64,000 nt of DNA, from assembly GCA_016208085.1 (NCBI GenBank), contig JACQYT010000080.1, positions 56,514 to 120,513 on the forward strand. The letters run 5' to 3'. Shown here piece by piece: positions 22,701-38,417 of this stretch. The notes under the pieces were generated by a model. The model was not told the origin of the DNA. It saw nothing but the letters and a program-made list of their open reading frames with translations, and searched no databases. The stretch's first letter is position 1; each line of letters begins with the position of its first letter. A program made the position numbers and the translations under genes. The stretch comes from Elusimicrobiota bacterium. GTDB taxonomy: Bacteria > Elusimicrobiota > Elusimicrobia > Elusimicrobiales > UBA9959.

Positions 22701-25700
22701 TTTTGTCGGTGGATGTGTCTTCCGACGGCAACCGGTTGGTATATATCCTGGACCCTTCAAACTGGACCCCGTACGCAGAACTTCACACGTTCAATCTTTC
22801 CACCCTGCAAGATGCCACTCTGCTGGGCAACGATGGTATTCGGGATTTTTACGCGCGATTTTCCCATGATGGCCAGAAAATAATATGGACAAAAGATACA
22901 AACTCCGAACCTTACGATTTCGGAATGCATATCTGGAAAATGAATACGGACGGTTCAGGCCAAACCGATCTGCACTCCGGGGCTAATTTTGAGGCTGACT
23001 ATCCTGTGGCTTCGCCTGATGACAGCCAAATCGTTTTTGCGCGCAGGGATTCGGCGTCGGGACCATGGAATCTCTGGAAGATGGGCTTTGACGGGACGAA
23101 TCAGGCTCAAATAACAACTATCGGAGGATGTATTGATACGGACTGGGGCCTGGCCGCCGCGCTATCTTCACCAACCGGCTTCATCTCAGGCAAGGTTACA
23201 AAGGCGGACGGGACAACGGCCATCCTGGGCGCAAAAATTGAAGCTTTGCAAAGCTCGGTTGTCAAAGCCTCGTCAACAGCGGACGCAAGCGGCAATTACT
23301 CTTTGACATTGGCCGCCGGAACTTATAACGTCCGTGCTTCTTCAACAGGTTATGTTGCCGCCGTCCAGACAGGTAAAACGGCAACAGCCGGCCAAACCGC
23401 CACGGTCAATTTCAACCTGGACACGGAGATCGTCGGCCAGCCTGACCTGGTTGTGTCAACTATTACCGTGGACTGTTCCACTCCGACAATCAACCAAACC
23501 GTTAATGTGATTATAAAGGTCAAAAACCAGGGCACGGCCGGCGCCAACGGGACTTTCTGGGTGGATTTCTACAAAAATCTCTCCCAGTCGCCGGCTGTGT
23601 CCCAACTGGGCAACGCTTACTGGTCTCAGAGCCCTCTGGAGGCCGGCGCGACAGCCCAATTGACTACGAGCTTCCATTATGACGGGGGCCAGTACAATCT
23701 TTACGCCCAGATTGACTCGGAAAACAACATAGCGGAAAGCAATGAAAGCAATAATATTTATGGACCGGTTTTAGTCAAAGAACAGATGGCAGGCGGGTGG
23801 ATCAGCGGCAAGGTTATTTCCAGGGCCGACGGCAAGGCCGTCCAGGGGGCGGCCATTGCCGCAAAACAGGGCGGGACAGCAATTAACAGTGCGGCGACAA
23901 ATATCGCCGGCAATTATGTTCTCGCTATTGCCTCAGGCGCTTATACGCTGGAAGCGACGGCTCCCGGTTATCTTTCCTCGTCAACGGCTGTTTCTATCCA
24001 GCTGGAGGAGACGAAATACAAAGACTTCGCCCTCTCGCCTATAACGGGTCAGGGCGTGATTACGGGATTTGTCACAAAAGCCGACGGGGTGACTCCCATT
24101 CCGAATGCCGCCATAAAATTGTCAATCGGAGCAATAGTCGTTGACACGAGGCTCGCAAACGCCATCGGCGCATACAGATTCATAACCTCCACCGGCACAT
24201 ACAATCTGGAGGCTAACGCCGCCGGTTATACAACAAAAGTTAACTCAAATATAACTATTTTGGACAACCAGGCGACAGCGGTTAATTTCGCCCTTGCTCT
24301 GGCCAATACGCCGCCGGAGCCTGTTTCTGAGCTTGCCGCTTTGCCTTTGGACAACCTGAAGGTCTTTTTGTCCTGGACCCCGTCCGTGTCCGGCGACGTT
24401 TTCTACTACCGCATTTATTACGCGGCCGGCGCGCTGGATTACCAGACGTTGTATGCCTCGGTAAAGGATACAATCAGCCATCTGGAGCGCTCCTGGACAA
24501 GCCCGGCTTTGAACCGCTCCCAAAATTACTATTTTTCTGTAAGGCCGGTGAATGTTTTTGAAGTGGAAAACCTTGATACCAACAATGAAGTGGAAAACCT
24601 TGATACCAACAATATCGTCAGCGCCGCTATCTCGGAAACCGTCTCCGGCGTCAAAGCGGCGATAAAAGTTCCACAAACAGGCAAAAAGGTCTCCGGCAAC
24701 AGGCTTACCATCGTTGCCGAAGCCGTCCAGGAGCCCTTAAATGTAAGCAAGATTAAATTCATGTACAAAGCGTCCCATCTTGAGGACTGGGAAAGCGTGC
24801 CCGCGGCCGACGCCAGGCATCCCAATCCCGCCGTTGTCTGGCCTTATTTTATCCACTGGGATCTTGCGGATGTTTCTGGCAATTCTTTGCCGGACGGCAA
24901 CTATGATTTAAAAGCCGTCGCATACGATAAAAATAATAACCCGGATCCGTCGCCGATGACCGTGACCATATCAATCAATCATGTGGATAAGGATATAGAG
25001 GAAAAACTGGTTGACGGAAGCCAGCGCAAGACGGAAAAGATACACAACGAGAAAGACAACACAATTAAGGTGGGTGGGGCGGAAGCGGACGCCCTTACCG
25101 AAGTGAAAGTGGCTGCCGGCGCTTTGAACCAGTCGTCGGATTATATCAATGTGACGATTAATCCCTCTCTGGCCTCAAGACCTATCGGAAATTTGGCGCA
25201 AGTGCTGGAATCGCGCGATGTCTTTTTGGACAGCGGCCAGAAAAATCTGTCCAAAGAATCGGAAATAACCATTCCCTATAACGACGCGAATAATGACGGT
25301 GTCGTTGACGGCACAAATATCAAGGCGGATGATTTGCAGGTTTGGTATTTTAATGAAGCGACAAAGTTATGGAAAAAGGAAGATCACTTCACAATAGACA
25401 AGACCAGAAAGGTCGCGACTGTGCTTGCAAGTCATTTCTCCACTTTTGCCCTGGTTTCTTCCCTGGGTGCGGATCTTTCCAATATTAAAGTATATCCCAG
25501 TCCCATCAAGGTTCATGACGGTCATGACAGGGCGACTTTCGCGGGGCTTACCGGCAAGGATGTGAAACTAAGGATATTCAACGTGGCCGGAGAGATCGTC
25601 TTTGAGAAAGAGCATATCTCGACCCCCACCTACGACTGGCTGCTGGTAAACAACAGCGGGAGAGCTGCGGCCGGCGGGGTTTATATATATGCGCTGACCG

Positions 25701-25747
25701 ACAATACCGGCGGGAAAGCCACCGGGAAATTCGGAGTAATAAGATAA
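19712..25747 (+). CDS. Giant (~2010 aa) secreted multidomain surface protein with a T9SS-type C-terminal sorting domain
   Basis: Signal peptide MKLGKIISYVLLMFVLAAVCSDRAGA after a GGAGGGG RBS. There are 7 FG-GAP/VCBS-like blades (GDVNGDGFLEVV, ADINGDGNLEVI, ADMNNDGKKDIV, NDINGDGNNEII, SDLDNDGQNELI ...). Four carboxypeptidase-regulatory-like domains (ISGKVTKADGTT...), TolB-like PD40 repeats, CARDB (PDLVVSTITVD...VKNQG), FN3 and Ig-like modules follow. The C-terminal tail VYPSPIKV...GVYIYALTDNTGGKATGKFGVIR resembles Por_Secre_tail. Confidence 0.85.
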   Translation: MKLGKIISYVLLMFVLAAVCSDRAGAVDWTFKVTDTLQNYGSISTSTIPNPVYNDGSKIIRAISPGTTTSSNNWSAFTNTLSNVTFYAQLEGTALSILASGPTESALRALWAGYWDDEPYLVTDPVSGNSLYQSWAATYSGGNFTRPYDKSRTLLYRLAKDTLSQLKGLGAVGQNSALAGNYTYDSVQPKKVFVIHYNVMASEYGYHESLSSRHWPWGNATSQCKYHPSLYVCEYSDGDVTKIFNFSYQNPAAFNLAGYISNDNSEWTKLYADSTLLIEQVNSGGKLIGISSAAAFPSQIKWQGHKTWSTNWGNFWYAVMADSVSYTGTSQGNSEPVTPESLDIFELFNFSAGPVSSAPIAAIPGKGWQMPTYDLGATNFYPSSSTAFAGGLGLKWQASASKALTGDVNGDGFLEVVTTNGSFLKVLDKNGAALAAAATPATLSVLADVTGDNIPEIFLSYRDGFNNLKIDIYQGNGAFIKTINRGASGYDSSWEVRAVIGDKILTGEYTGYSLIPRGAGAYSYSSGNQLWYYEIGPCFAGGAAKGFGIGDINSDGKLEAGLGAYTCHNGKSANGTTDGDIYSIVINEDGQNVWTKKIAADWVAGCATNGWIEHTFADINGDGNLEVIAFEQHDPTYYPGTNHIHLVSNTGANLATFVGPDNGENWLWAIADMNNDGKKDIVVSANNEQRIYILDNQLVVLSSSAAGTGQVLAVNDINGDGNNEIISYQTSTSKIRVLGSDFTELYSYGVNNVTPFGKIVSDLDNDGQNELIVFTTVNQMYVLGAIASVATISGKVTKADGTTALPGAKVEVLQSSVVKASATVDTSGNYSLTIATGTYDIRASSNGYITSTQTGKTVASGQNPPVNFTLNSAVIIEKMVFSKNVSGDDYDIYIMNPDGNGLQQLTSGTNSDRRPRISPDGELIAFVRDAGAIYVMNPDGSDVHSIGNTYSLSYDLAWSTDSKKIYYTTGEGSTQIRSIAVSGGADTLVLSKTSYRFLSVDVSSDGNRLVYILDPSNWTPYAELHTFNLSTLQDATLLGNDGIRDFYARFSHDGQKIIWTKDTNSEPYDFGMHIWKMNTDGSGQTDLHSGANFEADYPVASPDDSQIVFARRDSASGPWNLWKMGFDGTNQAQITTIGGCIDTDWGLAAALSSPTGFISGKVTKADGTTAILGAKIEALQSSVVKASSTADASGNYSLTLAAGTYNVRASSTGYVAAVQTGKTATAGQTATVNFNLDTEIVGQPDLVVSTITVDCSTPTINQTVNVIIKVKNQGTAGANGTFWVDFYKNLSQSPAVSQLGNAYWSQSPLEAGATAQLTTSFHYDGGQYNLYAQIDSENNIAESNESNNIYGPVLVKEQMAGGWISGKVISRADGKAVQGAAIAAKQGGTAINSAATNIAGNYVLAIASGAYTLEATAPGYLSSSTAVSIQLEETKYKDFALSPITGQGVITGFVTKADGVTPIPNAAIKLSIGAIVVDTRLANAIGAYRFITSTGTYNLEANAAGYTTKVNSNITILDNQATAVNFALALANTPPEPVSELAALPLDNLKVFLSWTPSVSGDVFYYRIYYAAGALDYQTLYASVKDTISHLERSWTSPALNRSQNYYFSVRPVNVFEVENLDTNNEVENLDTNNIVSAAISETVSGVKAAIKVPQTGKKVSGNRLTIVAEAVQEPLNVSKIKFMYKASHLEDWESVPAADARHPNPAVVWPYFIHWDLADVSGNSLPDGNYDLKAVAYDKNNNPDPSPMTVTISINHVDKDIEEKLVDGSQRKTEKIHNEKDNTIKVGGAEADALTEVKVAAGALNQSSDYINVTINPSLASRPIGNLAQVLESRDVFLDSGQKNLSKESEITIPYNDANNDGVVDGTNIKADDLQVWYFNEATKLWKKEDHFTIDKTRKVATVLASHFSTFALVSSLGADLSNIKVYPSPIKVHDGHDRATFAGLTGKDVKLRIFNVAGEIVFEKEHISTPTYDWLLVNNSGRAAAGGVYIYALTDNTGGKATGKFGVIR
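24560..24613 (+). repeat. Perfect 27-bp in-frame tandem duplication (EVENLDTNN x2) inside the giant gene
   Basis: GAAGTGGAAAACCTTGATACCAACAAT occurs twice back to back. Confidence 0.95.
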
Positions 25748-25765
25748 TCTCAGGAGGAAAGCCTT

Positions 25766-27067
25766 ATGGTAAAAAAAGGATTTGTCGTACTAGCTGTCCT
25801 GTCTATGCTTGGTTCAGGGAGCGTTTATGCCGGCCGGGAGGGAAGCACGATCGCCCAATTTCTGAAAATCGGAAGCGGCGCAAGGCTGGCTGCGCTGGGA
25901 GAAAGCTTCGTCGGAATCGCGGACGACGCCGATTCGCTTTATTGGAACCCGGCCGGGCTTGCCAATATTTCGTCTTTGGAAGCCACGGCAAGCGGCGCCA
26001 TGCTCTATGAGGGCATTTTTTACGGCTTCATCGGGGCGGCCGGCAAGGCCGAGAAACTGGGCGGCGCGGTCGGCCTGAGTGTGACCCATCTGGGCATGAG
26101 CGAAATGACGGGATTTGACGCGTCGGGCAACCCGGCGCCGGATTATGGCGCGCATGACCTCGCGGTGGCCATATCCTATGGCCGAAAAGTCAAGCCCGGC
26201 GTTCTGGTCGGCGGCAATATAAAGTCCATCCGCCAGAAAATTGAAAATGAATCCGCTGCCGGGTTTGGAGCGGATATAGGCGGGCTCTATGTTCTGGATA
26301 AAACAAGCGTTGGAATCGCAATCCGCAACATGGGTACATCCATGGGATTTCATGAAAAGTCCGCTCTGCCGCTTTTAATAACGCTCGGCGCCTCCCACAG
26401 GTTACGGCCGGATTTGCTGCTTTGTTCGGACCTTAACCTGCCTTTTGATTATCATGCCAGCCTCCATCTTGGGGGAGAATACTTGTACAGAGAGGCGGTT
26501 ACTTTTCGTGCAGGGCTAAGGACCACAAATATCAGCGCGCTGGGCCTGGTTTCCGCGCTTAGCGTTGGAGTAGGGCTGAAAATAAAGAGCGTAAACTTTG
26601 ATTACGCGCTTCTGCCTTATGGAAACCTGGGAACCGCCCACCGAATCTCAATCAGCAATAAATTCGGCCAGATTCATTCCGGCAGCGCAGATGCCCGGGG
26701 ATCAGCGCGGGCATCGGGAGGGTCCGAGCCCATGGAATCCAAGCCGAAAGCCCAATTCCCCCAGCAACCTGCAGCCGCCCGGCCCGCTGCTCCTGCCCAG
26801 CCTGTTGAACCGAAGACTTCCGATCAACCTGCCGCGGCTGCCGCCGAGACAGCCAAGCCGGAGGAACAAAAGTCTGCAGAACAAATTACACTGTCAACAC
26901 CGACCGTATCGGAGACTGAGATAACAAAGCCAGCCCCGGCCATACCACAAGTCACTCTGCCGGCAGAGCCTGAAAAACCACCAAAGCCTGTTGAAATACC
27001 CGCCGCCCCGGCAGAAGCATCGCCGTCTCCAGCTCCATCCCAGGCTCCAACAACTCCTGGCCAGTAG
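25766..27067 (+). CDS. PorV/PorQ-family outer-membrane beta-barrel protein with a long Pro/Ala/Glu-rich C-terminal tail
   Basis: Signal peptide, then FLKIGSGARLAALGESFVGIADDADSLYWNPAGLANI (the PorV-family N-terminal signature). Alternating beta-strand pattern up to ~aa 300. The last ~125 aa are low-complexity PAAAPAQPVEPK... Confidence 0.7.
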   Translation: MVKKGFVVLAVLSMLGSGSVYAGREGSTIAQFLKIGSGARLAALGESFVGIADDADSLYWNPAGLANISSLEATASGAMLYEGIFYGFIGAAGKAEKLGGAVGLSVTHLGMSEMTGFDASGNPAPDYGAHDLAVAISYGRKVKPGVLVGGNIKSIRQKIENESAAGFGADIGGLYVLDKTSVGIAIRNMGTSMGFHEKSALPLLITLGASHRLRPDLLLCSDLNLPFDYHASLHLGGEYLYREAVTFRAGLRTTNISALGLVSALSVGVGLKIKSVNFDYALLPYGNLGTAHRISISNKFGQIHSGSADARGSARASGGSEPMESKPKAQFPQQPAAARPAAPAQPVEPKTSDQPAAAAAETAKPEEQKSAEQITLSTPTVSETEITKPAPAIPQVTLPAEPEKPPKPVEIPAAPAEASPSPAPSQAPTTPGQ

Positions 27068-27106
27068 GGCGTCATTGGGAAGATTTTGTCGAAAAGCGAA
27101 CGAACA

Positions 27107-27178
27107 CCCGAAAATTTCAGAGGATATTTTTATTCCTCAAGTTGTCAATACAAATCGATATTAATTGAAATTTTCGGG
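27107..27178. terminator. Long hairpin between convergent genes (13-bp arms CCCGAAAATTTCA / TGAAATTTTCGGG)
   Basis: Arms at 27107..27119 and 27166..27178 enclose an inner GAGGA..TCCTC hairpin and are preceded by the GCGAACGAACA head of the repeat family. The element abuts the aroA stop. Confidence 0.5.
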
Positions 27179-28420
27179 TTAATGGAATATTTTTTTAAAG
27201 TCTTTGAAGAATGCCGGGTAGGATTTTTTTACGCAGCCGGGGTTCTTTATTTTAACGGGTTTCGCCGCAAGTATCGCCCCCACGGCGGCCGTCATCGCTA
27301 TGCGGTGGTCGTTGAACGTGTCAACGGCCCTGCCGCCGGCTATCGTCTGCGGGCCCTTGATCACAAGGCTGTCTTTGCCTGCTCCGGCCTTCAGGCCCAG
27401 GGACATGAAAAGCGCCAGGGTGGCCCGTATCCTGTCCGATTCTTTGAGTTTCAGTTCTCCGATCCCGTTTATGACGGTCGTGCCGCTGGCGCGGGCGGCT
27501 AAAAGCGCCAGCAGCGGCAACTCATCCACCATGGCCGGCACTTCGCCCGGCCGTATCCGGATGCCTTTGAGCCGTGAACTCAAAACCGTAAGGTCACCGG
27601 CCGGTTCAGGCGCATAATGCGTCTTTCTGACGGATATTTTCGCGCCCATTGCTTTAAGTATTTTTACCAGGCCGGTCCTGCCGGGGTTCAGTCCGACATT
27701 TTTTATCGTGAGCCTGAAGCCTTCCAGCAGGCAGGCCGCGGCCATAAAAGGCGCGGCCGAAGAGAGGTCTCCCGGCACGCGTATCTCTTTCGCCTTGAGC
27801 CGCCCCGGCTTTAAATAGATAGTCAGGCCGGCCGCCGAGATACGGGCGCCGAGATGTTTAAGCAGGCGCTCCGTATGGTCGCGGGTCCGGAAGCGCCCGG
27901 TTATGGAGGTGGCGCCTTGCGCGTAAAGAGCGGCCAGCAGTATCGCCGATTTTATCTGCGCGCTGGGGACCGTGAGCCTATGAGCCGCGCCTTTTAAAGC
28001 GGAGCCTGAGATATATATCGGCGCTCTGCCGCCGGAAAGGCGGATTTTGGCGCCCATAAGTTCAAGCGGCGCCGCTACCCTGGACATGGGTCTTTTTAAA
28101 AGGGAGTCTTCGCCGGTTATAGCCGAATCAAAATCCTGGCCGGCCAGCAGGCCGCTCAGCAGGCGCAGGGTAGTGCCGGACGCGCCGGCATTAAGAGTCC
28201 CTGTCGGTTTTTTCAGGCCGCCAAGCCCCAAGCCTTTTACCAGCAGGCGGTTTTTTGAAGCGGAAATCCCGACCCCGAGTTTTTTCAGGCAGGCGGCGGT
28301 GGCCAGCGTGTCTTCGCAGAGCGAGGGGTTGTCTACGCGCGTGTTCCCGTCCGCTATGGCGGCGAGTAGCAGCGCCCTGTGGGTTATGGCCTTGTCCGGC
28401 GGCGGAATATAAGGTTTCAT
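27179..28420 (-). CDS. aroA: 3-phosphoshikimate 1-carboxyvinyltransferase (EPSP synthase)
   Basis: MKPYIPPPDKAITHRALLLAAIADGNTRV, LNAGASGTTLRLL, and the C-terminal DHRIAMTAAV. The start is trimmed by 40 codons because the track extension is a read-through of the repeat 28421..28540. Confidence 0.9.
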   Translation of the reverse strand: MKPYIPPPDKAITHRALLLAAIADGNTRVDNPSLCEDTLATAACLKKLGVGISASKNRLLVKGLGLGGLKKPTGTLNAGASGTTLRLLSGLLAGQDFDSAITGEDSLLKRPMSRVAAPLELMGAKIRLSGGRAPIYISGSALKGAAHRLTVPSAQIKSAILLAALYAQGATSITGRFRTRDHTERLLKHLGARISAAGLTIYLKPGRLKAKEIRVPGDLSSAAPFMAAACLLEGFRLTIKNVGLNPGRTGLVKILKAMGAKISVRKTHYAPEPAGDLTVLSSRLKGIRIRPGEVPAMVDELPLLALLAARASGTTVINGIGELKLKESDRIRATLALFMSLGLKAGAGKDSLVIKGPQTIAGGRAVDTFNDHRIAMTAAVGAILAAKPVKIKNPGCVKKSYPAFFKDFKKIFH

Positions 28421-28601
28421 AAGTTGACAAGTTGATAAGTAGGGGAAGTTGATAAAGCGGGGGACAGTTGACAAGGCTGGGGAAGTTGATAAGTAAGGGA
28501 GTGATTTACTCTGTTCACTTATCAACTTGTTGTTTCCCACTTGTCAACTTATCAACCGCCGGTTTCACTTGCCAACTGTTGTTCCCCACTTTGTCAACTA
28601 G
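28421..28601. repeat. ~180-bp imperfect palindrome built from 5 + 5 inverted copies of AGTTGAYAA / TTRTCAACT
   Basis: The left arm has 5 copies of AGTTGA(C/T)AA separated by G-rich spacers. The right arm has 5 copies of the complement. The centre lies near 28505. Confidence 0.85.
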
Positions 28602-31448
28602 TCAATTGGAGCGAAGCAAAAACCTTGCACTAGATTTATAAAACGACTTACATATTATTAAAATAAGTCCAAGCAAAGTTATAAGTAAGATCAAACTTGG
28701 TTCTGTCATTCGTTGAGTGTCTTCTCCTAAGTCTAACGATTGGTTGCTTAAAAGCAATTTGTCCTGTTTTTGTTTCAGAATCGCTTTTTGTGCTTCGTTT
28801 TCAACTACAATATATGAAGTTATAGGTGTCATTATTTTTGAGATAAAACTATGCTTGACTAAATTAAGCCATTCTTTGCCGGATGTTTCAGGATGGAAGG
28901 TTTGTGAAATCCATTTGCCTTGCATTATCAAACCTGTCTGCCAACTTTTTTCAATTATTTCCGAATTATTAACTTCAAATAATGTCTCCTTTAAAACAAT
29001 ACTCGGTTTATTGTGATTTGGTAAATAAGCTATTGGTTTTTGTTTGTTGGGATATGCCAATACCTTATGATTAAAATTTAACTCTAATGTGCCGGTAAGC
29101 GGTATTTTAGGATTTGACAATAAAGAATGAGATTCCAAACCCCATTTTTGGTTAATCACGTAGAACAAATTATTTTCAGGATAAGCTATTTTAAAATCGG
29201 AAAAGTCTTTTTCAATTATTGCATTTTCAATACTATCAGTTACTACCACAATAACAGGATAAGCATTGTTCCTGTCTTTATATGAATTAAATAAAACCGT
29301 CCTAATTGCTCTATCCAAAAAAAACCCGCCATCAAAAATCTGTTGGTCAAATTTCTGTCTCCAATTATTGTCTAAAGGAAGGCTGCGGGTATATGTGTTT
29401 GCAAAACTTATTTTGGCATTCTCCTTGCCAATTAGATTTTTACTTAACAGCGATTTAATTCTTTGAGCAAAATCTTCCTTAAAATTTTCTTTTCCAGATG
29501 AAATGTCAACTATAAAGTGATAATACGGCTTTCTCTGAATTTTTTTCAACGTTGTCTTTTCTTTTGCTGAAACATATACAATATTTTCATTTGAACTGGT
29601 AGTAGTTCTTATTTCTGAGTGCTCTTTGTAATTTCCTAATCTTAATGTGGTTCCATCAATAGTAATTTTAACCGGCTCTTGATGGATAAATTCTATTCCT
29701 GTTTTTCGAGTTTCACCTTTAGAAAACGGAAAAACTCTGAAAACCACTTTATTGCCTGACAGATAATGTAAAATACCAGGGTCCCTATTTTCATTTCTGA
29801 TTTGTGAGAATACCCATATTGCAGATTTTTTCTCCGCTAATATACCCATTTCCTTTTTATTTCCAACATATAAGTAATAATCGCTAATCCAACATCCGAT
29901 GGGCAGTTCAATTGTTGTGGCATATTCTGAAAGCTGGGTGGTTTCACTATGATTTGTAATTTCTAAATCCATCCAACTTGTCCAAGCATTTTGTTTTTCG
30001 TCAAAAGTGCTGCTTGAATTTATCTTTGAGATTTTGACTTGAGTATTGCCGATGTTTTCAGCCCGCAATTTAAATGAGGTTTTGCCGTAAAAAACATTTT
30101 CAATAGTGTTAATCTTTGAATCAGACAGGGTAAGGTTGTCTAAAACCAGCCAATTAAAATAAGAAGACAGATAAGGGATTTGTTTTTCAAAAAGCAAATT
30201 TAAATTTCTGTCTTTGTGATATTTGACTACATCTAGTGTTTTTGAAAGAGAGATTTTGTCAATGTTATAGGTTTTAGAATAGTCCGGTTTATACAAGTAC
30301 TCAAGCGTTTCGTTTAATGCGCGTCTGTCCATTAAATAAGTGGCTGTGATAAATAGTGGTAATACAAAAAAACCTGCTACTGAAAGGAATACCGCTAATT
30401 TTTTAGATAGATAGGTTTGTGGGAATTTATAGTCATTTAAAAGTTCGTTTAAATGGATAATAAAAAGCGCCAACGGCGTAAGCATTAAGAAGCCTGTCCC
30501 GACAGCAGCAATTGCAATGATTGAAAATGGCAAAAAGGGCAGGAAAACCAAGAAAAAATAAAAGGTAAAAGCAAACGTTAAACTCCTTCCTGCAAAAAGA
30601 AATAGTCTATACAATTTATTCTGCGAATTCGGCAGGCAAATAAGCAATCCATTTATTACTGCAAGAATGTAAAACCAGATATTGCTAAAATCACCGAAAG
30701 TGCCTGAATTTTCAACTCCAAATTTATTAAAAAAATATTCCTTGTTATTTAATGCTAAACCTAAAAGTGGAAATATAAGAGCAATGGGGATTTTCCAAGC
30801 CAACTGATATTTAACCCACATAGCGGCTTTTTTAAGACCCAGGATGTAAATCCCCCTAATTAAAAAGAATAAGAAGATAAGTGTCGCGATAATTGCCAGA
30901 ATAACCATCGCGTGCATGCTAAAATTTGAATCAACAGGTTTCCACAAGGGGAATATTAGTTGGGTAAATAAATACCAGGAAATAGGAATAATTAGCGCTA
31001 TTAAAAAATTCTTCCAAACCTTTTGTTCTTTATTCTCAGGCGTTAGAAGTGCAACAAGTGTAAAGAGAGAATATGCAAGTGTCGGCATTAAGAAGGTTCC
31101 GACATACAAGATCATATTTGTTGGAACCATCCATTGCGGGATATCAAAAGGGATTATTACATCAAAATAATTTCCATAGAGATATAAGAATGATATGTAA
31201 CTTAACAATGCTGTAATGGAATAGAATGCCGAAACTTCTTTCTTCTTAATTACAAGGTCAACAGCATAAATAAAATTGAGCGTGCCCAATATCGCTAATG
31301 TGCCGCCAAATTTTTTCCAAAGACCTATGCTCTCAGCCGATAAAAGACTTTTGATAATATTGTATTCTCCCAAAAAGATAGCGAACAGTATTCCGATTGG
31401 AATAGCATTGATTATAAACAACCATTTTGGATTAAGTGAGTTTCGCAT
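28602..31448 (-). CDS. MSEP-CTERM-type exosortase substrate: polytopic membrane N-terminus plus a VIT-like/extracytoplasmic domain plus a C-terminal sorting signal
   Basis: 948 aa. There are ~12 predicted TM helices in the first ~370 aa. The C-terminus is MTEPSLILLITLLGLILIICKSFYKSSARFLLRSN (M-T/S-E-P, a TM helix, then a basic tail). Strongly AT-rich. Confidence 0.7.
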   Translation of the reverse strand: MRNSLNPKWLFIINAIPIGILFAIFLGEYNIIKSLLSAESIGLWKKFGGTLAILGTLNFIYAVDLVIKKKEVSAFYSITALLSYISFLYLYGNYFDVIIPFDIPQWMVPTNMILYVGTFLMPTLAYSLFTLVALLTPENKEQKVWKNFLIALIIPISWYLFTQLIFPLWKPVDSNFSMHAMVILAIIATLIFLFFLIRGIYILGLKKAAMWVKYQLAWKIPIALIFPLLGLALNNKEYFFNKFGVENSGTFGDFSNIWFYILAVINGLLICLPNSQNKLYRLFLFAGRSLTFAFTFYFFLVFLPFLPFSIIAIAAVGTGFLMLTPLALFIIHLNELLNDYKFPQTYLSKKLAVFLSVAGFFVLPLFITATYLMDRRALNETLEYLYKPDYSKTYNIDKISLSKTLDVVKYHKDRNLNLLFEKQIPYLSSYFNWLVLDNLTLSDSKINTIENVFYGKTSFKLRAENIGNTQVKISKINSSSTFDEKQNAWTSWMDLEITNHSETTQLSEYATTIELPIGCWISDYYLYVGNKKEMGILAEKKSAIWVFSQIRNENRDPGILHYLSGNKVVFRVFPFSKGETRKTGIEFIHQEPVKITIDGTTLRLGNYKEHSEIRTTTSSNENIVYVSAKEKTTLKKIQRKPYYHFIVDISSGKENFKEDFAQRIKSLLSKNLIGKENAKISFANTYTRSLPLDNNWRQKFDQQIFDGGFFLDRAIRTVLFNSYKDRNNAYPVIVVVTDSIENAIIEKDFSDFKIAYPENNLFYVINQKWGLESHSLLSNPKIPLTGTLELNFNHKVLAYPNKQKPIAYLPNHNKPSIVLKETLFEVNNSEIIEKSWQTGLIMQGKWISQTFHPETSGKEWLNLVKHSFISKIMTPITSYIVVENEAQKAILKQKQDKLLLSNQSLDLGEDTQRMTEPSLILLITLLGLILIICKSFYKSSARFLLRSN

Positions 31449-31977
31449 TATGTCGTGTTAATTCAGTAAGTGTAAAATTAACCCCTAAATAAAAGATTAT
31501 CAGAAAAAAAAGGTAGATAAAAGTCCCTTCGGCTTGGTGTAACCAGGAAATGTGTCCGTCTGCCAGTTTCGCTCCTGATCTGTGTATAAAAACAGAAAAT
31601 AAAATTCTGGAAGTATTTGCAAAAATTGTAAAAATGTATGCGGCAAGCAGCGTAATTGGTAAAGCGGCTATTTTTCTGTTTCTGTCTTGTAAGAATTTAA
31701 TAACCGCGAATGCAAGCATTATAAAACACAATATCCAAAAGTTGAAACCTGAACAAGATTTGTCAATTACAACGTTCAGTTTATCGTGAAAATATCCACC
31801 GTCATTGACACAAATCGAGTTTGAGTTTGTAATTATTTCAATGATTTTGTCGGTTGGTTTAAGTAGAAAATAAAGGTCGGTATTGTCGGCAAGCGTATAA
31901 GCGAATTTTAAAAGTATAAAAACCGCTATCACTGTAAAATAGTATGGTGTATTTCTGTTCGCAGTCATTTTTGTCAA
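31432..31977 (-). CDS. Small exosortase-family transpeptidase (XrtK-like)
   Basis: The exosortase catalytic triad motifs are visible: IDKSCSGFNFW (Cys), FANTSRILF (Arg) and WLHQAEGTFIY (His). 181 aa and polytopic. It overlaps the substrate gene by 17 nt. Confidence 0.75.
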   Translation of the reverse strand: MTKMTANRNTPYYFTVIAVFILLKFAYTLADNTDLYFLLKPTDKIIEIITNSNSICVNDGGYFHDKLNVVIDKSCSGFNFWILCFIMLAFAVIKFLQDRNRKIAALPITLLAAYIFTIFANTSRILFSVFIHRSGAKLADGHISWLHQAEGTFIYLFFLIIFYLGVNFTLTELTRHNAKLT

Positions 31978-32409
31978 CTAGAACTTTCTGTTAAGGCAAA
32001 AATCAATAGCTTTGATGTATGAAATGGGTCCCAGGCCGCGTATCTGTCCGGCGCAGGCGGCTTTTGTCACCGAGAGCCGGCGGAACGGTTCCCTTTTCTT
32101 TATGTCGGAAAGATGCACCTCAACGGCCGGGAGCCCGGAGGCTTTTATGGCGTCCCTTATGGCGTAGCTGTAATGGGTGTACGCGGCGGGGTTTATTATA
32201 AGAGAGTCCGCCCAGTTTAAATTCCGCGCTATCAGGTCTATTATGCGGCCTTCGCAATTTGACTGGAATATCCTTGTTTTTACGCGTTTTGAGGCGGCAT
32301 ATTTTCTGATAAGGGCGTTCAGCTCTTTAAGCGTGAGCCTGCCGTATATTTCGGGCTCCCTTAAGCCCAGGAAATTAAGATTGGGGCCGTGGATTATAAG
32401 TATGTTCAT
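31978..32409 (-). CDS. aroQ: Type II 3-dehydroquinate dehydratase
   Basis: MNILIIHGPNLNFLGLREPEIYG is the type II DHQase N-terminus, and INPAAYTHYSYAIRDA is also present. The start is trimmed to Met7 because the track extension MRQKFL is a translated palindromic repeat. Confidence 0.9.
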   Translation of the reverse strand: MNILIIHGPNLNFLGLREPEIYGRLTLKELNALIRKYAASKRVKTRIFQSNCEGRIIDLIARNLNWADSLIINPAAYTHYSYAIRDAIKASGLPAVEVHLSDIKKREPFRRLSVTKAACAGQIRGLGPISYIKAIDFCLNRKF

Positions 32410-33557
32410 TAAAAATTTTTGTCGCAAAAATTTTTACCATACCCCGCCCGCAAGCCGCGGGGTAACCTTAATGCGGTCAGCGTTCCTTTAAGTATGCCGG
32501 GCGCGATATTGTTCACGGCCTTTATCCGCCCGGGCCGTTCTATCAGCAGGAACCGGTTTTTACCGGCTCCGGCTTTTTTATCATAGCAAATCAGCCTGTG
32601 AAAAGCGCGGAAGTCAAAGCATTTCGCGGCGAGCGGCGGGGCCTGCGTTTTCCATAATATGCCGGATACGGTTTTTTGATGCGCGGGTTTGAGGATTTTA
32701 AGTTTTATGGATAACAGGCACGCGTAGCGCATACCCCACAGCACGGCAGCCCCGTGCGCGAGGCGTCCGCCTGAGGCGGATTCAAAAGCGTGGCCGGCCG
32801 TATGGCCGAAATTTAAGCGTTCCCTTACGCCGGTCTTGTCCCGCTCGTCGCGCGCCGTCAGCGACAGCTTGAAATCCGCGCAGGCGCTCACCAGTTTCAC
32901 AAGGGCCGCCGTTTCGCCTTTCAGGGCGCGTCCGAGATTTTTAAGAACGCGGCGCCGCAAAGCCGCCGGCCCGATCAGCGCGTATTTCACCAGTTCGCCC
33001 GCGCCCGCGCTCAGCTCGTCCCGGCCCAGGGTTTGAAGAAAAGCGGCGTCGCAGACGGTCAGAGCGGGCTGGTAAAATGCGCCGGCCATATTCTTAATCC
33101 CGGCGAGGTCCACGGCCGTCTTCCCGCCGAGGCCCGCATCTATCTGGCCCAGAAAAGTGGTCGGCACGCTTATCCAGCTTATGCCGCGCATATAAAGAGA
33201 AGCCGCCAGGCCCGCCAGGTCAGTGACCGAGCCCCCGCCCGCCGCGATCAAAAGGGAGTTTCTTGAAAAGCCGCGCTTCAGCATGAACGAGAGGAGTTCT
33301 TCAAGCGCGCGGAAAGTTTTGGCGGGGCGTCCCGCCGGCAGGACGAAAATATGCGTTCCGGCCCGCCGCCGTCCCAGCATTTTTTTAAAGGTTCTTTTAA
33401 ATTTCTTCAGGCAGCCCCGGTCGGTCGCCAGGCAGATATGGCCGGCCCTGGCGAAAAGCTCCGGCGCCAGATCGGTAAGCGGCGGCAGATCCCGGCCGCA
33501 GACGGCCCGGACGGTCTTAGCGGTCTTTATATCGCGCTTTAAAAAAGTTTTTGTCAT
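32409..33557 (-). CDS. aroB: 3-dehydroquinate synthase
   Basis: AAGGGSVTDLAGLAAS glycine-rich NAD motif and the metal-binding H residues in NFGHTAGHAFE. There is a 1-nt stop/start overlap (TAATG) with aroQ. Confidence 0.85.
   Translation of the reverse strand: MTKTFLKRDIKTAKTVRAVCGRDLPPLTDLAPELFARAGHICLATDRGCLKKFKRTFKKMLGRRRAGTHIFVLPAGRPAKTFRALEELLSFMLKRGFSRNSLLIAAGGGSVTDLAGLAASLYMRGISWISVPTTFLGQIDAGLGGKTAVDLAGIKNMAGAFYQPALTVCDAAFLQTLGRDELSAGAGELVKYALIGPAALRRRVLKNLGRALKGETAALVKLVSACADFKLSLTARDERDKTGVRERLNFGHTAGHAFESASGGRLAHGAAVLWGMRYACLLSIKLKILKPAHQKTVSGILWKTQAPPLAAKCFDFRAFHRLICYDKKAGAGKNRFLLIERPGRIKAVNNIAPGILKGTLTALRLPRGLRAGYGKNFCDKNF
32411..32470. repeat. Two-hairpin repeat element (AAAAATTTTTGTCGCAAAAATTTTT + CCCCGC..GCGGGGTAACCTTA), copy 2 of 3, embedded in the aroB 3' end
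   Basis: Same architecture as 56696..56753 in the opposite orientation. It encodes the last ~20 aa and the stop of aroB, and it abuts the aroQ start codon. Confidence 0.8.
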
Positions 33558-34065
33558 GTTTTTTGACCGCGGCTTCTATTTTGGCTGCCGTCTGCGCCGG
33601 GGTTAAGAAAGAAACGTTTATTTGAATATACGCGCGTTCGTAGTAAGGCCGGCGGCTTTTAAGCAGGCGGCTTATGAGCGCCGGCCTTTTTTCAGGGTCC
33701 GTTCCCAGAAGCGGCCTTGAGCCGGGAGCTTCGGCCAGCCTTTTTAAAAGCTCTCTTTCAGAGCAGGCCAGATAGACCGTGACACCGGTGCGCGTTAAAA
33801 AGCCCCGCTTTTTTGTAAGCGTCACCCCGCCGCCCATAGCTACCACCTGGTTATCGGCGCGCGAAACATCCTTGAGAACGGAGTCCTCAAGCCGCCGGAA
33901 CGCTTTAAGCCCGCGCTTACTTATTATATCCGCGGCGCTCAGGTCCGAGGCTTTCTTCACCTCGGCGTCGGTGTCTTTGAAGGCCAATCCCGTTTTCCCG
34001 GCCAGCCGCCGTCCGGCCGAATTCTTGCCGGCGCCCATAAAGCCGAGGAGATATATGTTCTTCAT
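33517..34065 (-). CDS. aroK: Shikimate kinase
   Basis: MKNIYLLGFMGAGKNSAGRRLA Walker A. The start is trimmed to give a 4-nt overlap with aroC. Confidence 0.85.
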   Translation of the reverse strand: MKNIYLLGFMGAGKNSAGRRLAGKTGLAFKDTDAEVKKASDLSAADIISKRGLKAFRRLEDSVLKDVSRADNQVVAMGGGVTLTKKRGFLTRTGVTVYLACSERELLKRLAEAPGSRPLLGTDPEKRPALISRLLKSRRPYYERAYIQINVSFLTPAQTAAKIEAAVKKHDKNFFKARYKDR

Positions 34066-35144
34066 GCCCCGCGTAAAAGTTTTTTTATCCGCCTGCGCCA
34101 CGCGTCCACCCTCGGCTTTATTTCCGAAAGGGAATCGCCGCCGAACTTCTCAAGCAGCGTGTTGGTTATTTCAAAAGCGGTCATGGCTTCGGCTATGACC
34201 GCCGCGGCCGGCACGGCGGTGACATCATGGCGGACCGGCCTGAACGCGGTTTTTTTCCCGGTTTTTAAATTAACGGAGGGGACCGGCCAGTCGAACGCGG
34301 GCGGCGGTTTCAGCCAGCAGCATATTACGAGCTGCGAGCCGTTGGTTATGCCGCCCTCTATTCCGCCGGCGCGGTTAGTGCGAAAAACCACCCTGCCGGA
34401 GTCTATTTCAGGGAAGTCCACCGTATTTTCGGTGCTGGCCGCCGCGAGCTGGAAACCGCCGCCTATTTCCACGCCTTTGACGGAATTAATGGCGAACATC
34501 GCGGAGGCAAGGCGCGCGCTGAGGCGCCGGTCGGCCTGCGCGTGCGACCCCAGCCCCGCCGGCACGCCGTCGGCGCAAATCTCAAAAGCTCCGCCAAGCG
34601 TGCGGCCTTGCCTGCGCGCTTTGTTTATTATAGCGAGCATTCCGGCGGCGACTGCCGGATCGGGAGAACGCGCCGAAGCGAGATTCACCCCCCCGTCGAT
34701 AATGGTCACGCGGCTCGTTATCTCTATGCCCAGAAGCTCCAGCAGCCGCAGCGGGAACGCGCCGAGGGCCGTACGCACAGCGGTCTCGCGGGCGCTGGCC
34801 CTTTCCCGGATGACGGCCGGGGGCACGTCATATTTGAGCGAACCGGCCAGATCCGCGTGTCCGGGCTTTACGATCCATGGATCCGCGTGGTCCGGCAGGC
34901 CGGCGGCGTTCGGGAGAAGGAGCGCTATCGGCGCGCCGGTGGTCAGGCCTTTGCTGACTCCGCCGGTTATTTCCACGGCGTCGGACTCGATTTCCTGGCG
35001 GGCGCTCCGCCCGGGCGCTCTCCGCCTGCGCTCAAGCCCCCGCGCTACGCGAGCGGCGTCTATCCTTACGCCCGCCGGGAATCCGTCCAGGATGCCGGTC
35101 AGGGTCTTGCCGTGCGATTCTCCGGCGGTCAGATATCTAAGCAT
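34062..35144 (-). CDS. aroC: Chorismate synthase
   Basis: MLRYLTAGESHGKTL N-terminal signature and RSARETA. The 412-aa + strand ORF 34159..35397 is its shadow. Confidence 0.9.
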   Translation of the reverse strand: MLRYLTAGESHGKTLTGILDGFPAGVRIDAARVARGLERRRRAPGRSARQEIESDAVEITGGVSKGLTTGAPIALLLPNAAGLPDHADPWIVKPGHADLAGSLKYDVPPAVIRERASARETAVRTALGAFPLRLLELLGIEITSRVTIIDGGVNLASARSPDPAVAAGMLAIINKARRQGRTLGGAFEICADGVPAGLGSHAQADRRLSARLASAMFAINSVKGVEIGGGFQLAAASTENTVDFPEIDSGRVVFRTNRAGGIEGGITNGSQLVICCWLKPPPAFDWPVPSVNLKTGKKTAFRPVRHDVTAVPAAAVIAEAMTAFEITNTLLEKFGGDSLSEIKPRVDAWRRRIKKLLRGA

Positions 35145-35959
35145 GCGTCCCTCGCCTTGTTTTTCAATTTTACAATTTCACCCGCGCTTAAACGCCTGCC
35201 GCTCCAAAGCGCCGCGCTCGCCAGCGCCTGGTAAATCAGCAGGTCAAGGCCGGTTATCGTTTTCCCCGGCCGGTCCTTCAAAAAAGGCGTGCCGCCCGGG
35301 GCGTAGGCGAAATCGCAATACAGTCCTGTTTTCAGGTCAGGGACTTTCAGGGCCGGCGGAAGCGGCTTATACATGCCCAGCGGCGTGGCGTTTATGAAAA
35401 CCGCGGCTTTTGCGGGAACCGGCGAAAAAAAGTTTCCGGCTTTAAATCTTACGCGCGGGAACTGTTTTGAAAAATACGAGGCCAGCGCCCGGGCTTTGGC
35501 GTAAGAACGGTTATATATGCGTATTTCCCCTGCGCCCCTGGCCGCCAGGGTCCAGGCTGCCGCCTTTGCCGCGCCCCCCGCGCCCCAGATGACGCAAGTC
35601 ACGCCCCTGACGCCGGCTTTGACTTCTTTTAACGAGTATTCAAGCGCTTTAGCGTCGGTGTTGAAGCCTTCCAGAGCGCCGTCCCGGATCAGCACCGCGT
35701 TGACCGCGCCTATGCCCTCGGCGTCTTTATGCGCTTTTGCCAGGAAGGGGGAGACGCGTTCTTTCAGCGGCAAAGTGACATTGAACCCGCGCCAGCCGGA
35801 TTTTTTAATTTCTTCTATCGCTTTTCCGAGGCCCGGCGGCCCGACTTCTTTAAGGGTATAGCTGAATTTTTCGTCCAGCAGGCCTGAAAATATGTTGAAC
35901 AGCCGCGGTGAAAGGGATCTTTTAAGGGGTTTGCCTATCAGACCTGTTTTAATGGCCAC
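35129..35959 (-). CDS. aroE: Shikimate 5-dehydrogenase
   Basis: GLIGKPLKRSLSPRLFN, GFNVTLPLK, and VIWGAGGAAKAAA (the NADP site). Confidence 0.9.
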   Translation of the reverse strand: MAIKTGLIGKPLKRSLSPRLFNIFSGLLDEKFSYTLKEVGPPGLGKAIEEIKKSGWRGFNVTLPLKERVSPFLAKAHKDAEGIGAVNAVLIRDGALEGFNTDAKALEYSLKEVKAGVRGVTCVIWGAGGAAKAAAWTLAARGAGEIRIYNRSYAKARALASYFSKQFPRVRFKAGNFFSPVPAKAAVFINATPLGMYKPLPPALKVPDLKTGLYCDFAYAPGGTPFLKDRPGKTITGLDLLIYQALASAALWSGRRLSAGEIVKLKNKARDACLDI

Positions 35960-35976
35960 TTGGGAGCCTCCGCCTG

Positions 35977-36963
35977 CTACCTCAGTTTCCTTATTTCTTT
36001 AAGCAGTCCGGCGAACGCGGGTATTGTAAGCGTCTGTCTGCCGTCCATAATGGCGGATTCGGGATTTAAGGCGGTTTCCAGCATAAGGCCGTCGGCGCCG
36101 GCCCTTACCGCGGCCAGGGCCTGCGCCGGCACGAGGTCATTGTCGCCGGCGGCGTGGCTCGGGTCGGCTATCACGGGCAAGGCGGCGGCTGTCAGAGCCC
36201 GGCGGATCATTTTCAGGTCCAGGCCGCGCGGGTCGGGCTTGGAGAAAGAATCGCCCCGCTCGCAAAGTATGATGTTTTCATTGCCGTATTTGATCAGGTA
36301 TTCCGCCGAAAGCAGCCATTCCTTAAGCGTCGCGCCGGGCGCGCGTTTTAAAAGGACCGGTTTTCCGGAGACGGCCGCCGCTTTTAAAAGCTCGTAATTG
36401 CGCATGTTCCGGGCGCCGATCTGGACGACGTCGCAGAAACGGCTGATATCCGCAAGCTGGGTTTCGGAGGTGGCTTCGGTGACGGCGGCAAGCCCCGTGC
36501 GGGACTTTGCCTTTTTGATTATGGCGAAACCTTTCCCGCCCACGCCCTGGAACGAGTAAGGCGAGGTGCGGGGCTTGAACAGGGCCGCCCTCAGGGCGCC
36601 GACGCCGGCGGCTTTAAGCCGGACCGCGGCGGCCAGATACGAAGCTTCGTCTTCTATCGCGCAGGGCCCGGCTATAATAATAAATTTTTTGGCGGCATTT
36701 TTTTTGAAGAGCCCGGCCAGTTCGGGAGGCGGGGCCGCGAGCGTCCGCGGGCAGGTCTCTTTAAGGCTGAGCTCGGTCTTGTGAACGCCGGGCAGGTTCT
36801 CTATAAGCGCCAGCCGCTCGCCCAGCAGTTCGGGCCGGCAGGTCCGCACTGAAATAAAACCGCGGCCGAGCGCCAGCGCGGCCCCGGGCAGCAGGTCTGC
36901 GATTTTATCCTGAATTCTATTAAGTTCCGCGGCCCGGCATCCCGGCTTAAACCGTATGATCAT
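35977..36963 (-). CDS. aroF: 3-deoxy-7-phosphoheptulonate (DAHP) synthase, type I-beta with an N-terminal regulatory (ferredoxin-like) domain
   Basis: IIAGPCAIEDE, FKPRTSPYSFQG and DPSHAAG are KdsA/DAHPS I-beta signatures. An ~80-aa N-terminal extension is present. Confidence 0.85.
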   Translation of the reverse strand: MIIRFKPGCRAAELNRIQDKIADLLPGAALALGRGFISVRTCRPELLGERLALIENLPGVHKTELSLKETCPRTLAAPPPELAGLFKKNAAKKFIIIAGPCAIEDEASYLAAAVRLKAAGVGALRAALFKPRTSPYSFQGVGGKGFAIIKKAKSRTGLAAVTEATSETQLADISRFCDVVQIGARNMRNYELLKAAAVSGKPVLLKRAPGATLKEWLLSAEYLIKYGNENIILCERGDSFSKPDPRGLDLKMIRRALTAAALPVIADPSHAAGDNDLVPAQALAAVRAGADGLMLETALNPESAIMDGRQTLTIPAFAGLLKEIRKLR

Positions 36964-37208
36964 TTTTGCATGCGCCTGCCCTGTCTGAAGATTTCTTTGT
37001 AAACGGCTGCGACGGCGAACCTTAGCTCTTTGCTTCCGGCAAGGCCGCCGGCTGTTTTGAGCACTGCCGCTTCGCGTTTGGGGTCCCGGATGGTTTTTTT
37101 AAGCCCGGCCAGCGATTTTACCAAGCCGAACCTTTTAACCAACAGGCCGGCCAGGCGCGAATCTATGGCGTCTATCTTTTTCCTCTTTTTCTCAAGGGCG
37201 CTTATCAT
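36960..37208 (-). CDS. Chorismate mutase (AroQ-class, monofunctional)
   Basis: RKKIDAIDSRLAGLLVKRFGLVKSLAGLK is the CM type 2 helix-1 pattern. 82 aa, with an ATGA overlap onto the DAHP synthase gene. Confidence 0.75.
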   Translation of the reverse strand: MISALEKKRKKIDAIDSRLAGLLVKRFGLVKSLAGLKKTIRDPKREAAVLKTAGGLAGSKELRFAVAAVYKEIFRQGRRMQK

Positions 37209-37289: not shown

Positions 37290-38417
37290 ATGGCGGAAAC
37301 GCTTGAATTAAAAGATATAGCCAATAAAATAGATCGGCTTGATAAATTTTTAGCGGATATAGCGGAGCTTTACGGCCTTGAAAGCAAGCGCGCGGAGCTG
37401 AAAAAGAAAGAGGACGCTTCCGCGGCTTTGGACTTCTGGAACAATACCGAAAAAGCCCAGGCTCATCTTAAAATAGTGAACGATATCAAAAAAGACGTAT
37501 CGCTGATGGACGCCGTAAAGGCGGAGCTGGAAGATTTCAAAGTGCATTTCGTCCTGGCCAGGGAGTCCGGCGACGCCGCGGAGCTCGCCCTTGTCATGGA
37601 GGGGCTCAGAGAAGTAGAAAAGAAACTGTCCGGGGTTGATTTTGAGCTGAAGCTGTCCGAACCGCTGGATAAAAACGACGCCATAATCAGCATCCACTCC
37701 GGCGCCGGCGGCACCGAGGCCTGCGACTGGGCGCAGATGCTGCTAAGGATGTACACCCGCTGGGCCCAGGCCAAGGGATTTCCGTTTGCGATAACCGATA
37801 TCCTGCAGGGCGACGAAGCCGGCGTGAAAAGCGTGACCGCCCTCGTCAAGGGCAAATACGCCTACGGCTACCTTAAAAGCGAGACAGGCGTGCACCGCCT
37901 GGTGCGCATCTCGCCGTTTGATTCCAATAAAAGAAGGCACACCTCTTTCGCGTCAATGGACGTGCTGGCCGACATAGAAGACCTTGTGGAGATAAAGATA
38001 GAGGATAAAGACCTGAAAGTGGACACCTACCGGGCCGGCGGCGCCGGCGGCCAGAACGTGAACAAGGTGGAGACCGCCGTGCGCATCACCCACGCCCCGT
38101 CCGGCATAGTGGTGGCCTGCCAGGTGGAGCGGTCGCAGCATCAGAACCGGGAAACGGCGATGAAGATGCTGAAAGCCAAACTGTATGAAGTGGAGATGGA
38201 TAAAAAGCGCTCCGAGATGGAGCGCCATTACGACGCAAAGGGCGACATCGGCTGGGGGCACCAGATACGCTCTTATGTTTTCATGCCTTACCAACTGGTA
38301 AAGGACCTGCGCACCGGTTACGAGACCTCCCAGGTGGACGCCGTCATGGACGGGAATCTCGACGGCTTCATGCATTCCTACCTGACCTGGCGCGCCGCCG
38401 GGAATAAAAAGAAATAA
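37290..38417 (+). CDS. prfB: Peptide chain release factor 2 (single uninterrupted frame)
   Basis: SPF tripeptide ([16 protein letters not shown]) and the GGQ motif ([21 protein letters not shown]). Confidence 0.9.

Follow-up and report, generated by a model that had tools for sequence, protein, structure and literature searches.

A Bacteroidota-type exosortase K/MSEP-CTERM cassette between aroQ and aroA of an Elusimicrobia shikimate operon

Exosortases and archaeosortases, which lie deep in the membrane, are putative cysteine peptidases or transpeptidases; they carry a Cys/Arg/His triad and remove tripartite C-terminal sorting signals. In the dedicated systems of this group, consecutive genes specify an enzyme and its only target (Haft 2023, bioRxiv 10.1101/2023.06.07.544157). 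The system formed by exosortase K (XrtK, TIGR04287) and the MSEP-CTERM protein (TIGR04286) is already known from Bacteroidota and bears the correct automatic name at NCBI. Described here is a copy of this pair in 64,000 nucleotides of DNA from an Elusimicrobiota bacterium (assembly GCA_016208085.1, contig JACQYT010000080.1, positions 56,514 to 120,513), hereafter the window, where it lies between aroQ and aroA of the shikimate operon. What is new is the Elusimicrobia host, the position within the shikimate operon at a host palindrome, and a series of empty, raw and compacted sites. The explanation favored, with a probability of roughly 0.7 as a whole, is that the pair was captured once from Bacteroidota, spread laterally through the units of the palindrome and was trimmed in the window lineage, and that XrtK sorts the MSEP-CTERM protein.

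The window pair resembles its Bacteroidota counterparts in gene order, in the 17-nt overlap of the two genes, in protein length (~178 and ~940–950 aa), in the Cys/Arg/His residues and in the tripartite signal, and, as in other one-to-one exosortase/substrate pairs, the genes for enzyme and target are consecutive. It differs from the Bacteroidota pairs in lying in Elusimicrobia, inside the shikimate operon and without a promoter region of its own, in having the signature MTEP rather than MSEP, and in its C-terminal tail, KSFYKSSARFLLRSN as opposed to the K/R-rich W(F/I)K.KRKR type. Weak but significant similarity also links the MSEP-CTERM protein to the XrtN system VIT domain protein (TIGR04477) over residues 163–585, which comprise the membrane region and VIT (E 1.4e-15), although the score of 56.6 against a cutoff of 250 means that it is no member of that family. 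As an insertion, the pair recalls integron attC cassettes and the integrative mobile elements exploiting Xer (IMEX) that use dif via host Xer, since it is compact, promoterless and of foreign composition, stands beside an imperfect palindrome, is bordered by direct repeats and brings no recombinase. Unlike in those elements, the palindrome is host-owned, being present at the empty site too; in addition, GTTGAYAAG misfits the attC core GTTRRRY, and the site is not dif.

The gene pair in the aro operon

The minus-strand operon runs, tightly coupled, through chorismate mutase, 3-deoxy-D-arabino-heptulosonate 7-phosphate (DAHP) synthase, aroE, aroC, aroK, aroB and aroQ, then through two extra open reading frames (ORFs) to aroA (Table 1). 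Gene overlaps of 4, 16, 4, 41 and 1 nt had been listed in an earlier note, made from the letters of this DNA alone; they were recomputed and are correct, and the DAHP synthase and aroE genes are separated by a 17-nt gap with no overlap. The same note had singled out two genes of low G+C between aroQ and aroA, and the composition agrees: G+C is 0.31–0.35 across 28600–32000 versus 0.55–0.66 in the aro genes, and every other 1-kb bin of the window is at 0.41 or above. The AT-rich segment (28602..31969) measures 3.37 kb and consists of two genes. The TAG stop of aroQ (31978–31980) lies inside the upstream copy of a 12-mer, xrtK starts 9 nt past that stop, the MSEP-CTERM stop is flush with the downstream copy, and the ATG of aroA is at 28420. 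The cassette has no space for a promoter of its own and, we infer, must be read through from the aro operon promoter. A terminator scan found no convincing terminator in the window's island, and because promoter and terminator scans are swamped by the AT-richness they yield no usable evidence about polarity. The observation as a whole, two foreign-looking genes between aroQ and aroA with 12-mer borders, is confirmed.

Table 1. Features of the interrupted operon and its palindrome, in window coordinates
Feature	Position	Strand	Evidence or remark
Upstream part of the operon (chorismate mutase, DAHP synthase, aroE, aroC, aroK, aroB)	32409..37208	-	Profile matches; same order in locus L078
Chorismate mutase	36960..37208	-	
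aroQ, type II 3-dehydroquinate dehydratase, 143 aa, ORF intact	31978..32409	-	TIGR01088, 173.7 bits (cutoff 169.85)
12-mer, aroQ-proximal (upstream) copy, CTAGTTGACAAA on the gene strand	31970..31981	.	Retains aroQ-side context
xrtK, exosortase K, 178 aa	31432..31968	-	TIGR04287, 139.2 bits (cutoff 55)
MSEP-CTERM protein, 948 aa	28602..31448	-	17-nt overlap with xrtK; TIGR04286, 916.3 bits (cutoff 150)
12-mer, aroA-proximal (downstream) copy	28590..28601	.	Abuts the MSEP-CTERM TGA (28602–28604); runs on into palindrome arm GTGGGGAAC
Host palindromic array, TTGAYAAG-(T/C)GGGRAAC units, ~4 units per arm	28421..28601	.	Insertion site; long hairpin
aroA, 5-enolpyruvylshikimate-3-phosphate synthase, 413 aa, last gene of the interrupted operon	27179..28420	-	TIGR01356, 371.9 bits (cutoff 287.25)

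The small gene had been taken for an exosortase, and this assignment stands: the curated NCBIfam cutoffs are passed, and the motifs KSCSGFNFW, NTSRILF and WLHQAEG are present, offering a candidate catalytic Cys (KSCSG), Arg (NTSRI) and His (WLHQAEG). The TIGR04287 match covers profile positions 2–160 of 163, and the protein also scores 39.1 bits against the exosortase/archaeosortase signature TIGR04178 (cutoff 23) and 36.8 bits against PF09721. The maximal ORF (31432..31977) has 181 codons for amino acids; a conserved ATG at 31968, indicated by homologs and by independent gene calls, gives 178 aa. XrtK is 92% identical to the copy in a second Elusimicrobia locus, L005, then at most 61% identical to any other; identities to Bacteroidota XrtK are 48–60%, with 60% to one Saprospiraceae XrtK. 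The motifs KSCSGFNF, NTSRI and H..(E/A).G are common to the window protein, the L005 copy and three Bacteroidota XrtK. Within the 64-kb window, xrtK adjoins a single MSEP-CTERM gene, one-to-one, and overlaps it just as in the Bacteroidota loci L006, L075 and L076.

The MSEP-CTERM assignment of the 948-aa gene proved equally sound, with a nearly full-length match to TIGR04286 (profile positions 2–915 of 920) that passes the cutoff, and with the tripartite signal in place. The C-terminus consists of MTEP, the hydrophobic helix SLILLITLLGLILIIC and a basic tail that is less basic than in Bacteroidota homologs; among the 120 best homologs, MTEP occurs in 10 and MSEP in 107. The cytoplasmic tail of both Elusimicrobia copies (CKSFYKSSA[RG]FLLR..; window 28602–28650, L005 6700–6745) is atypical, that of Bacteroidota homologs being K/R-rich, and in the window gene the last two codons and the stop appear to derive from a former non-coding trailer.

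An AlphaFold2 model of the MSEP-CTERM protein has ~11–12 N-terminal transmembrane helices (residues 1–372), a beta-rich region (~471–604) and an alpha/beta region (~643–740). Pfam returns weak matches to VIT (E 1e-4) and VWA (E 0.097), and the best Foldseek match is ITIH1, an inter-alpha-inhibitor heavy chain (ITIH) with VIT and vWA domains (6fpy; E 1.2e-4, TM-scores 0.13–0.19), a weak pointer given the low confidence of the model; sequence and profile searches of PDB gave no match. Because the secondary structure of the model, the two Pfam families and the Foldseek match agree, the extracytoplasmic part is tentatively read as VIT-like (~471–604) and vWA-like (~643–740). For this part the ITIH chain is the best structural match, unlike the N-terminal polytopic domain, which has no counterpart there.

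XrtK would be an intramembrane Cys/Arg/His peptidase or transpeptidase that recognizes the MTEP, transmembrane helix and basic tail of its neighbor and removes the C-terminal anchor, most likely cleaving at MTEP. The new C-terminus of the VIT/vWA-like domain would probably be transferred to an envelope acceptor, and the N-terminal polytopic domain would keep the membrane anchoring. ITIH chains are cleaved C-terminally and transferred covalently to an acceptor, a glycan, which offers no more than a suggestive parallel for this processing. Three points count against the functional reading: it is drawn from homology only, a literature search found no experimental work on XrtK or MSEP-CTERM, and the AlphaFold2 model is poor (mean pLDDT 49.5 and pTM 0.30, its predicted local and global confidence scores, from a 25-sequence alignment).

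Host and pair point to different phyla. The identical 948-aa protein at NCBI is annotated from 'MAG: Elusimicrobia bacterium' (MAG, metagenome-assembled genome), and the close homologs of AroA all come from Elusimicrobia or Elusimicrobiales MAGs. Beyond one 90%-identical protein, MSEP-CTERM homologs have 60–67% identity, and the named ones belong to Saprospiraceae, Chitinophagaceae, Flavobacterium and Aequorivita; no donor candidate above 67% identity was found among 5.8 billion proteins. In the three Bacteroidota loci, gene order and overlap are the same and the gene neighborhoods are mutually unrelated, and the G+C of the pair is 0.29–0.33 (genomes 0.30–0.36) versus 0.33 in the window. Relative synonymous codon usage of the island correlates at 0.81 with the Bacteroidota pairs and at 0.70 with Bacteroidota flanking genes, versus -0.18 with host genes. 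Because homolog taxonomy, pair composition and codon usage are all Bacteroidota-like, the data support reading the cassette as a Bacteroidota-type import from an unsampled donor, in line with the horizontal origin proposed earlier. A tblastn search with the MSEP-CTERM protein against plasmids and phages gave no match, and thus no vector for the cassette.

Empty and occupied sites at the palindrome

The 12-mer TTTGTCAACTAG, described earlier as present at both borders, occurs exactly twice in 64 kb, with starts at 28590 and 31970; the right copy contains the aroQ stop and the left copy abuts the stop of the 948-aa gene, both as originally described. With at most one mismatch, 0.13 matches are expected, and two or more were obtained in 0 of 100 shuffles. 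Its 9-mer core, TTGTCAACT, recurs as the unit from which the local palindrome is built; the window has five copies, each of them in the palindrome or at one of the two borders. Since the core is a unit of the host palindrome, the flanking repeat is neither a chance match nor an arbitrary target-site duplication, and the 12-mer is the first unit of the host repeat array. The units of this array are ~21 bp long and form the sole cluster in 64 kb, with seven of the eight window matches to GTTGAYAAG falling within it. The palindrome fills exactly the interval between the upstream stop codon and the ATG of aroA, so that in the window it occupies the entire spacer between the MSEP-CTERM stop and aroA; its predicted RNA fold has an energy of -71 kcal/mol (z -7.0), there is no T-run after it, and no Rfam family matches in 27000–33000, palindrome included. 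For aroA, it might serve as an operator array, or form a hairpin that acts in mRNA processing or in the control of translation.

An empty site, predicted in the earlier note, does exist. In L007/L036, the nearest relative among the collected genomes and metagenomes (AroA 84% identical, AroQ 93.7%, other aro proteins 81–94%), a single TTGATAAAG-GGGAAAC palindrome separates the aroQ stop from aroA. Specifically, the aroQ TAA gives way directly to a 99-bp palindrome, composed of TTGATAAAGTGGGAAACGACAGTTGATAAGTAGGAAACGGCAG, a loop and inverted units, and then to aroA; the palindrome occupies 4148–4246 in L007, with two units per arm, and 6833–6926 in L005. Among more distant relatives, L008/L037 has aroQ and aroA 4 bp apart, and in L078/L079 they overlap by 14 nt; the palindrome is absent from these sites. 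Because the empty site of L007 carries the palindrome, it belongs to the host, as a feature of this sub-clade with the cassette at its first unit. Neither a metagenome scan nor an AroA homolog search turned up another occupied site or a relative nearer than L007. In one other relative, L077 (AroA 79% identical), the contig ends 51 bp upstream of aroA, and its positions 1–51 resemble neither the aroQ 3' end nor the palindrome; this may be a different arrangement or an assembly break at the site upstream of aroA.

Occupied sites are known from two clades. All seven contigs with the window's exact AroQ, drawn from five or more sequencing runs (SRR12113399-405) and an NCBI record, are occupied. 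The second clade is represented by L005 (SRR29054606), a more distant Elusimicrobia member in which a 90%-identical MSEP-CTERM protein (P0002) is encoded in a cassette likewise placed between aroQ and aroA, at G+C 0.32–0.38 in the island and 0.62–0.74 in the flanks, and by its close relative L080 (SRR29054610), with a left junction identical in layout; L005 and L080 come from a study other than that of the window. The abrupt change in composition and the MAG source would be expected if a Bacteroidota fragment had been joined to an Elusimicrobia contig during assembly or binning, but the same junctions stand in independent assemblies of at least five runs and in two contigs of another study and host lineage, the ORFs are intact, and the island sits between aroQ and aroA with host repeats on its flanks. 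Such an artifact is barely credible.

The two occupied forms differ at their borders. Past the aroQ stop, L005 has two host-type units (~43 bp), an 85-bp AT-rich leader, xrtK and the MSEP-CTERM gene, in this order; beyond the MSEP-CTERM gene come an 88-bp trailer, CTAGTTGACAAAG and the full palindrome. The window has the L005 layout minus ~119 bp upstream and ~88–90 bp downstream, the ends of the deletions showing short microhomologies, and its 12-bp repeat is the trimmed remnant of the ~43-bp duplicated palindrome arm (first unit or units) seen in L005 and L080. Among the parts gone from the window copy is a terminator-like hairpin in the leader (L005 3335–3364, also in L080) followed by GCATTTTTCA; this hairpin could have been polar, and its loss may reflect selection that restored read-through to aroA. 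Five junctions align in register at CTA[AG][AT]TGA[TC]AAAG[TC]GGG[AG]AAC, which identifies the first TTGAYAAAG word of the palindrome as the site and bears out the suggestion that the cassette entered a word of the palindrome.

The occupation of one site in non-sister lineages, each with an empty-site relative, and the unlike borders (12 bp versus ~43 bp repeats, leader and trailer present or not) might suggest two independent captures from related Bacteroidota donors at the same hot spot. However, the host-like right junction TCCA[A/G]TTGACTAGTTGACAAAG is common to the window and L005 (21 of 22 bases), as is the atypical tail ...KSFYKSSA[RG]FLLR.., which is absent in Bacteroidota homologs, and the copies have a mutual identity of 90%, in the face of the 67% ceiling on donor candidates. 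Because right junction and tail are shared, the two copies would descend from one insertion, and two captures are very improbable.

Other modes of entry were considered as well. No mobility gene was found among the called genes within ~10 kb and the island holds only two genes; no tRNA lies at the site, the nearest being 13 kb away; and no terminal inverted repeats were detected, the longer L005 form included. An integrase-mediated genomic island or an insertion sequence or transposon was rejected, as integrase or transposase, tRNA and inverted repeats are lacking and the flanking repeat is a 12 to ~43 bp piece of a host array. An integron cassette was likewise rejected: the RYYYAAC...GTTRRRY core misfits, the palindrome is that of the host, no integrase is present among the genes called around the site, and the window contains no cassette array. 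Duplication of the aroQ 3' end, raised by a TTTTTGC run like that at the MSEP-CTERM gene 3' end, was judged to be chance, since in L005 that segment lies 88 bp from the junction.

Under the favored explanation, a single capture from a Bacteroidota donor would have taken place into the first TTGAYAAAG-GGGAAAC unit of the palindrome, leaving unit copies on both sides; host units do flank each occupied site left and right. Cassette and adjacent units would then have moved together between Elusimicrobia lineages, the likely route being short-homology recombination at the units (Campbell-type or double-crossover), perhaps with integration of a circular or linear fragment bearing one unit and trimming afterwards. 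In the window lineage, two small deletions would have removed the 5' leader with its terminator-like hairpin and the 3' trailer. A bolder proposal is that the palindrome is a recombination hot spot at which a recombinase-less, promoterless cassette is captured again and again and exchanged between diverged Elusimicrobia through a trans-acting site-specific recombinase or short-homology recombination. We regard this as doubtful; if true, it would amount to an integron-like or IMEX-like cassette dock inside an essential biosynthetic operon that supplies the transcription.

Divergence, amelioration and the course of transfer

The cassette is far less diverged than the operon around it. Host proteins are 81–94% identical between the window and L007 and 73–85% between the window and L005, versus 90–92% for the island proteins of the latter two, and in the nucleotide alignment of the window with L005, identity rises from ~0.77 to ~0.92 exactly at the island borders. 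In Nei-Gojobori estimates of synonymous (dS) and nonsynonymous (dN) divergence, the island has dS 0.22–0.28, dN 0.04–0.05 and dN/dS 0.17 between the window and L005; dS of the flanking aro genes is 0.60–1.25 in this comparison and 0.24–0.49 between the window and L007. Between the window and L005, the flanks are thus 3–4 times as diverged as the cassette. Both cassette genes are under purifying selection, and this selection in two hosts shows that the pair is in use.

Composition tells of the time spent in the hosts. G+C at 4-fold sites (GC4) is 0.82 and 0.91 in the host genes and 0.32 and 0.41 in the island. Differences between the island copies are nearly all between strong and weak bases and are directional, 51 versus 19 at 4-fold sites and 173 versus 94 over the whole island (p = 1.5e-6). 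Amelioration is in progress and proceeds faster in the host of higher G+C. Had the island been present ever since the hosts diverged, its GC4 would be ~0.5–0.6 according to a two-state model calibrated on host genes. Given the low cassette divergence, the weak amelioration and the empty site of the sister lineage, the likelier course is that the cassette passed laterally between Elusimicrobia, entering at one common site, and reached the window lineage after its split from L007. The earlier note had called the insertion recent, and this holds in a relative sense only: the cassette is barely ameliorated, but a second, more distant clade carries it at the same site, and the two copies differ by the synonymous divergence given above.

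Several observations weigh against lateral spread. First, neither a recombinase nor a circular form was seen, and the transfer mechanism is inferred. Second, sampling is thin, with two island-bearing clades known. Third, the flanks of the window and L005 contain no recombination tract of raised identity. Fourth, between L080 and L005 the island dS is 0.06–0.07 and that of the flanks 0.19–0.20 (small counts), again a ratio of ~0.3. Should the island merely evolve at a third of the usual rate, the divergence between the window and L005 fits vertical inheritance with loss in L007. The ratio of ~0.3 in both shallow and deep comparisons would mean that sweeps have recurred or that the AT-rich island evolves unusually slowly; for the former, a lateral sweep at the depth of L080 and L005 could plausibly have occurred by homologous recombination, the flanks there being 94% identical.

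Taken to its end, the slow-island account requires one old insertion in the ancestor of the palindrome-bearing lineages (window, L007, L005 and L080), vertical descent, clean loss in L007 by recombination between the direct repeats, and a cassette that evolves ~3 times more slowly and resists amelioration. It draws on the island/flank dS ratio being ~0.3 at both depths, on flanks free of recombination tracts, on the single origin implied by the shared right junction, and on the flanking direct repeats, which would ease precise excision. Yet no neutral model slows AT-rich DNA threefold in a host with GC4 of 0.82–0.91, in which mutation and fixation bias predict equal or faster change; amelioration is visible (51 versus 19), yet GC4 has reached only 0.32 and 0.41 as against the value predicted for long residence; the dN ratio is inconstant across depths (~0.74 versus ~0.3, on small counts); and an extra loss event is needed in the sister lineage. 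Vertical descent is thus unlikely, although it is to be taken seriously, and we continue to favor one capture followed by lateral spread.

Other genes of the window and meaning of the pair

Several further genes of the window deserve mention. Convergent with aroA is a plus-strand pair (19655-27067), comprising a gene for a 2030-aa predicted surface protein with CarboxypepD_reg, FG-GAP, PD40, PEGA and CARDB repeats and, after it, a gene for a 433-aa protein with a weak UPF0164 match. A peptide chain release factor gene (37290-38417) is closely followed by a gene at 38546-39415 (+) whose 289-aa product matches the Druantia DruA domain (PF14236, E 5e-36). The patch of second-lowest G+C (0.41) contains a gene for a type I restriction-modification specificity subunit with two Methylase_S domains (7486-8787, +).

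The locus offers a clean, datable case of cross-phylum transfer, with an empty site, raw and compacted occupied states, amelioration that can be measured in hosts differing in G+C, and purifying selection. It also shows that an essential operon tolerates such an insertion, which was apparently streamlined later rather than removed. The XrtK/MSEP-CTERM pair would work as a portable, self-sufficient unit that is kept outside Bacteroidota. This retention argues that its acceptor and function are independent of Bacteroidota-specific envelope machinery, which narrows the hypotheses on what the system does.

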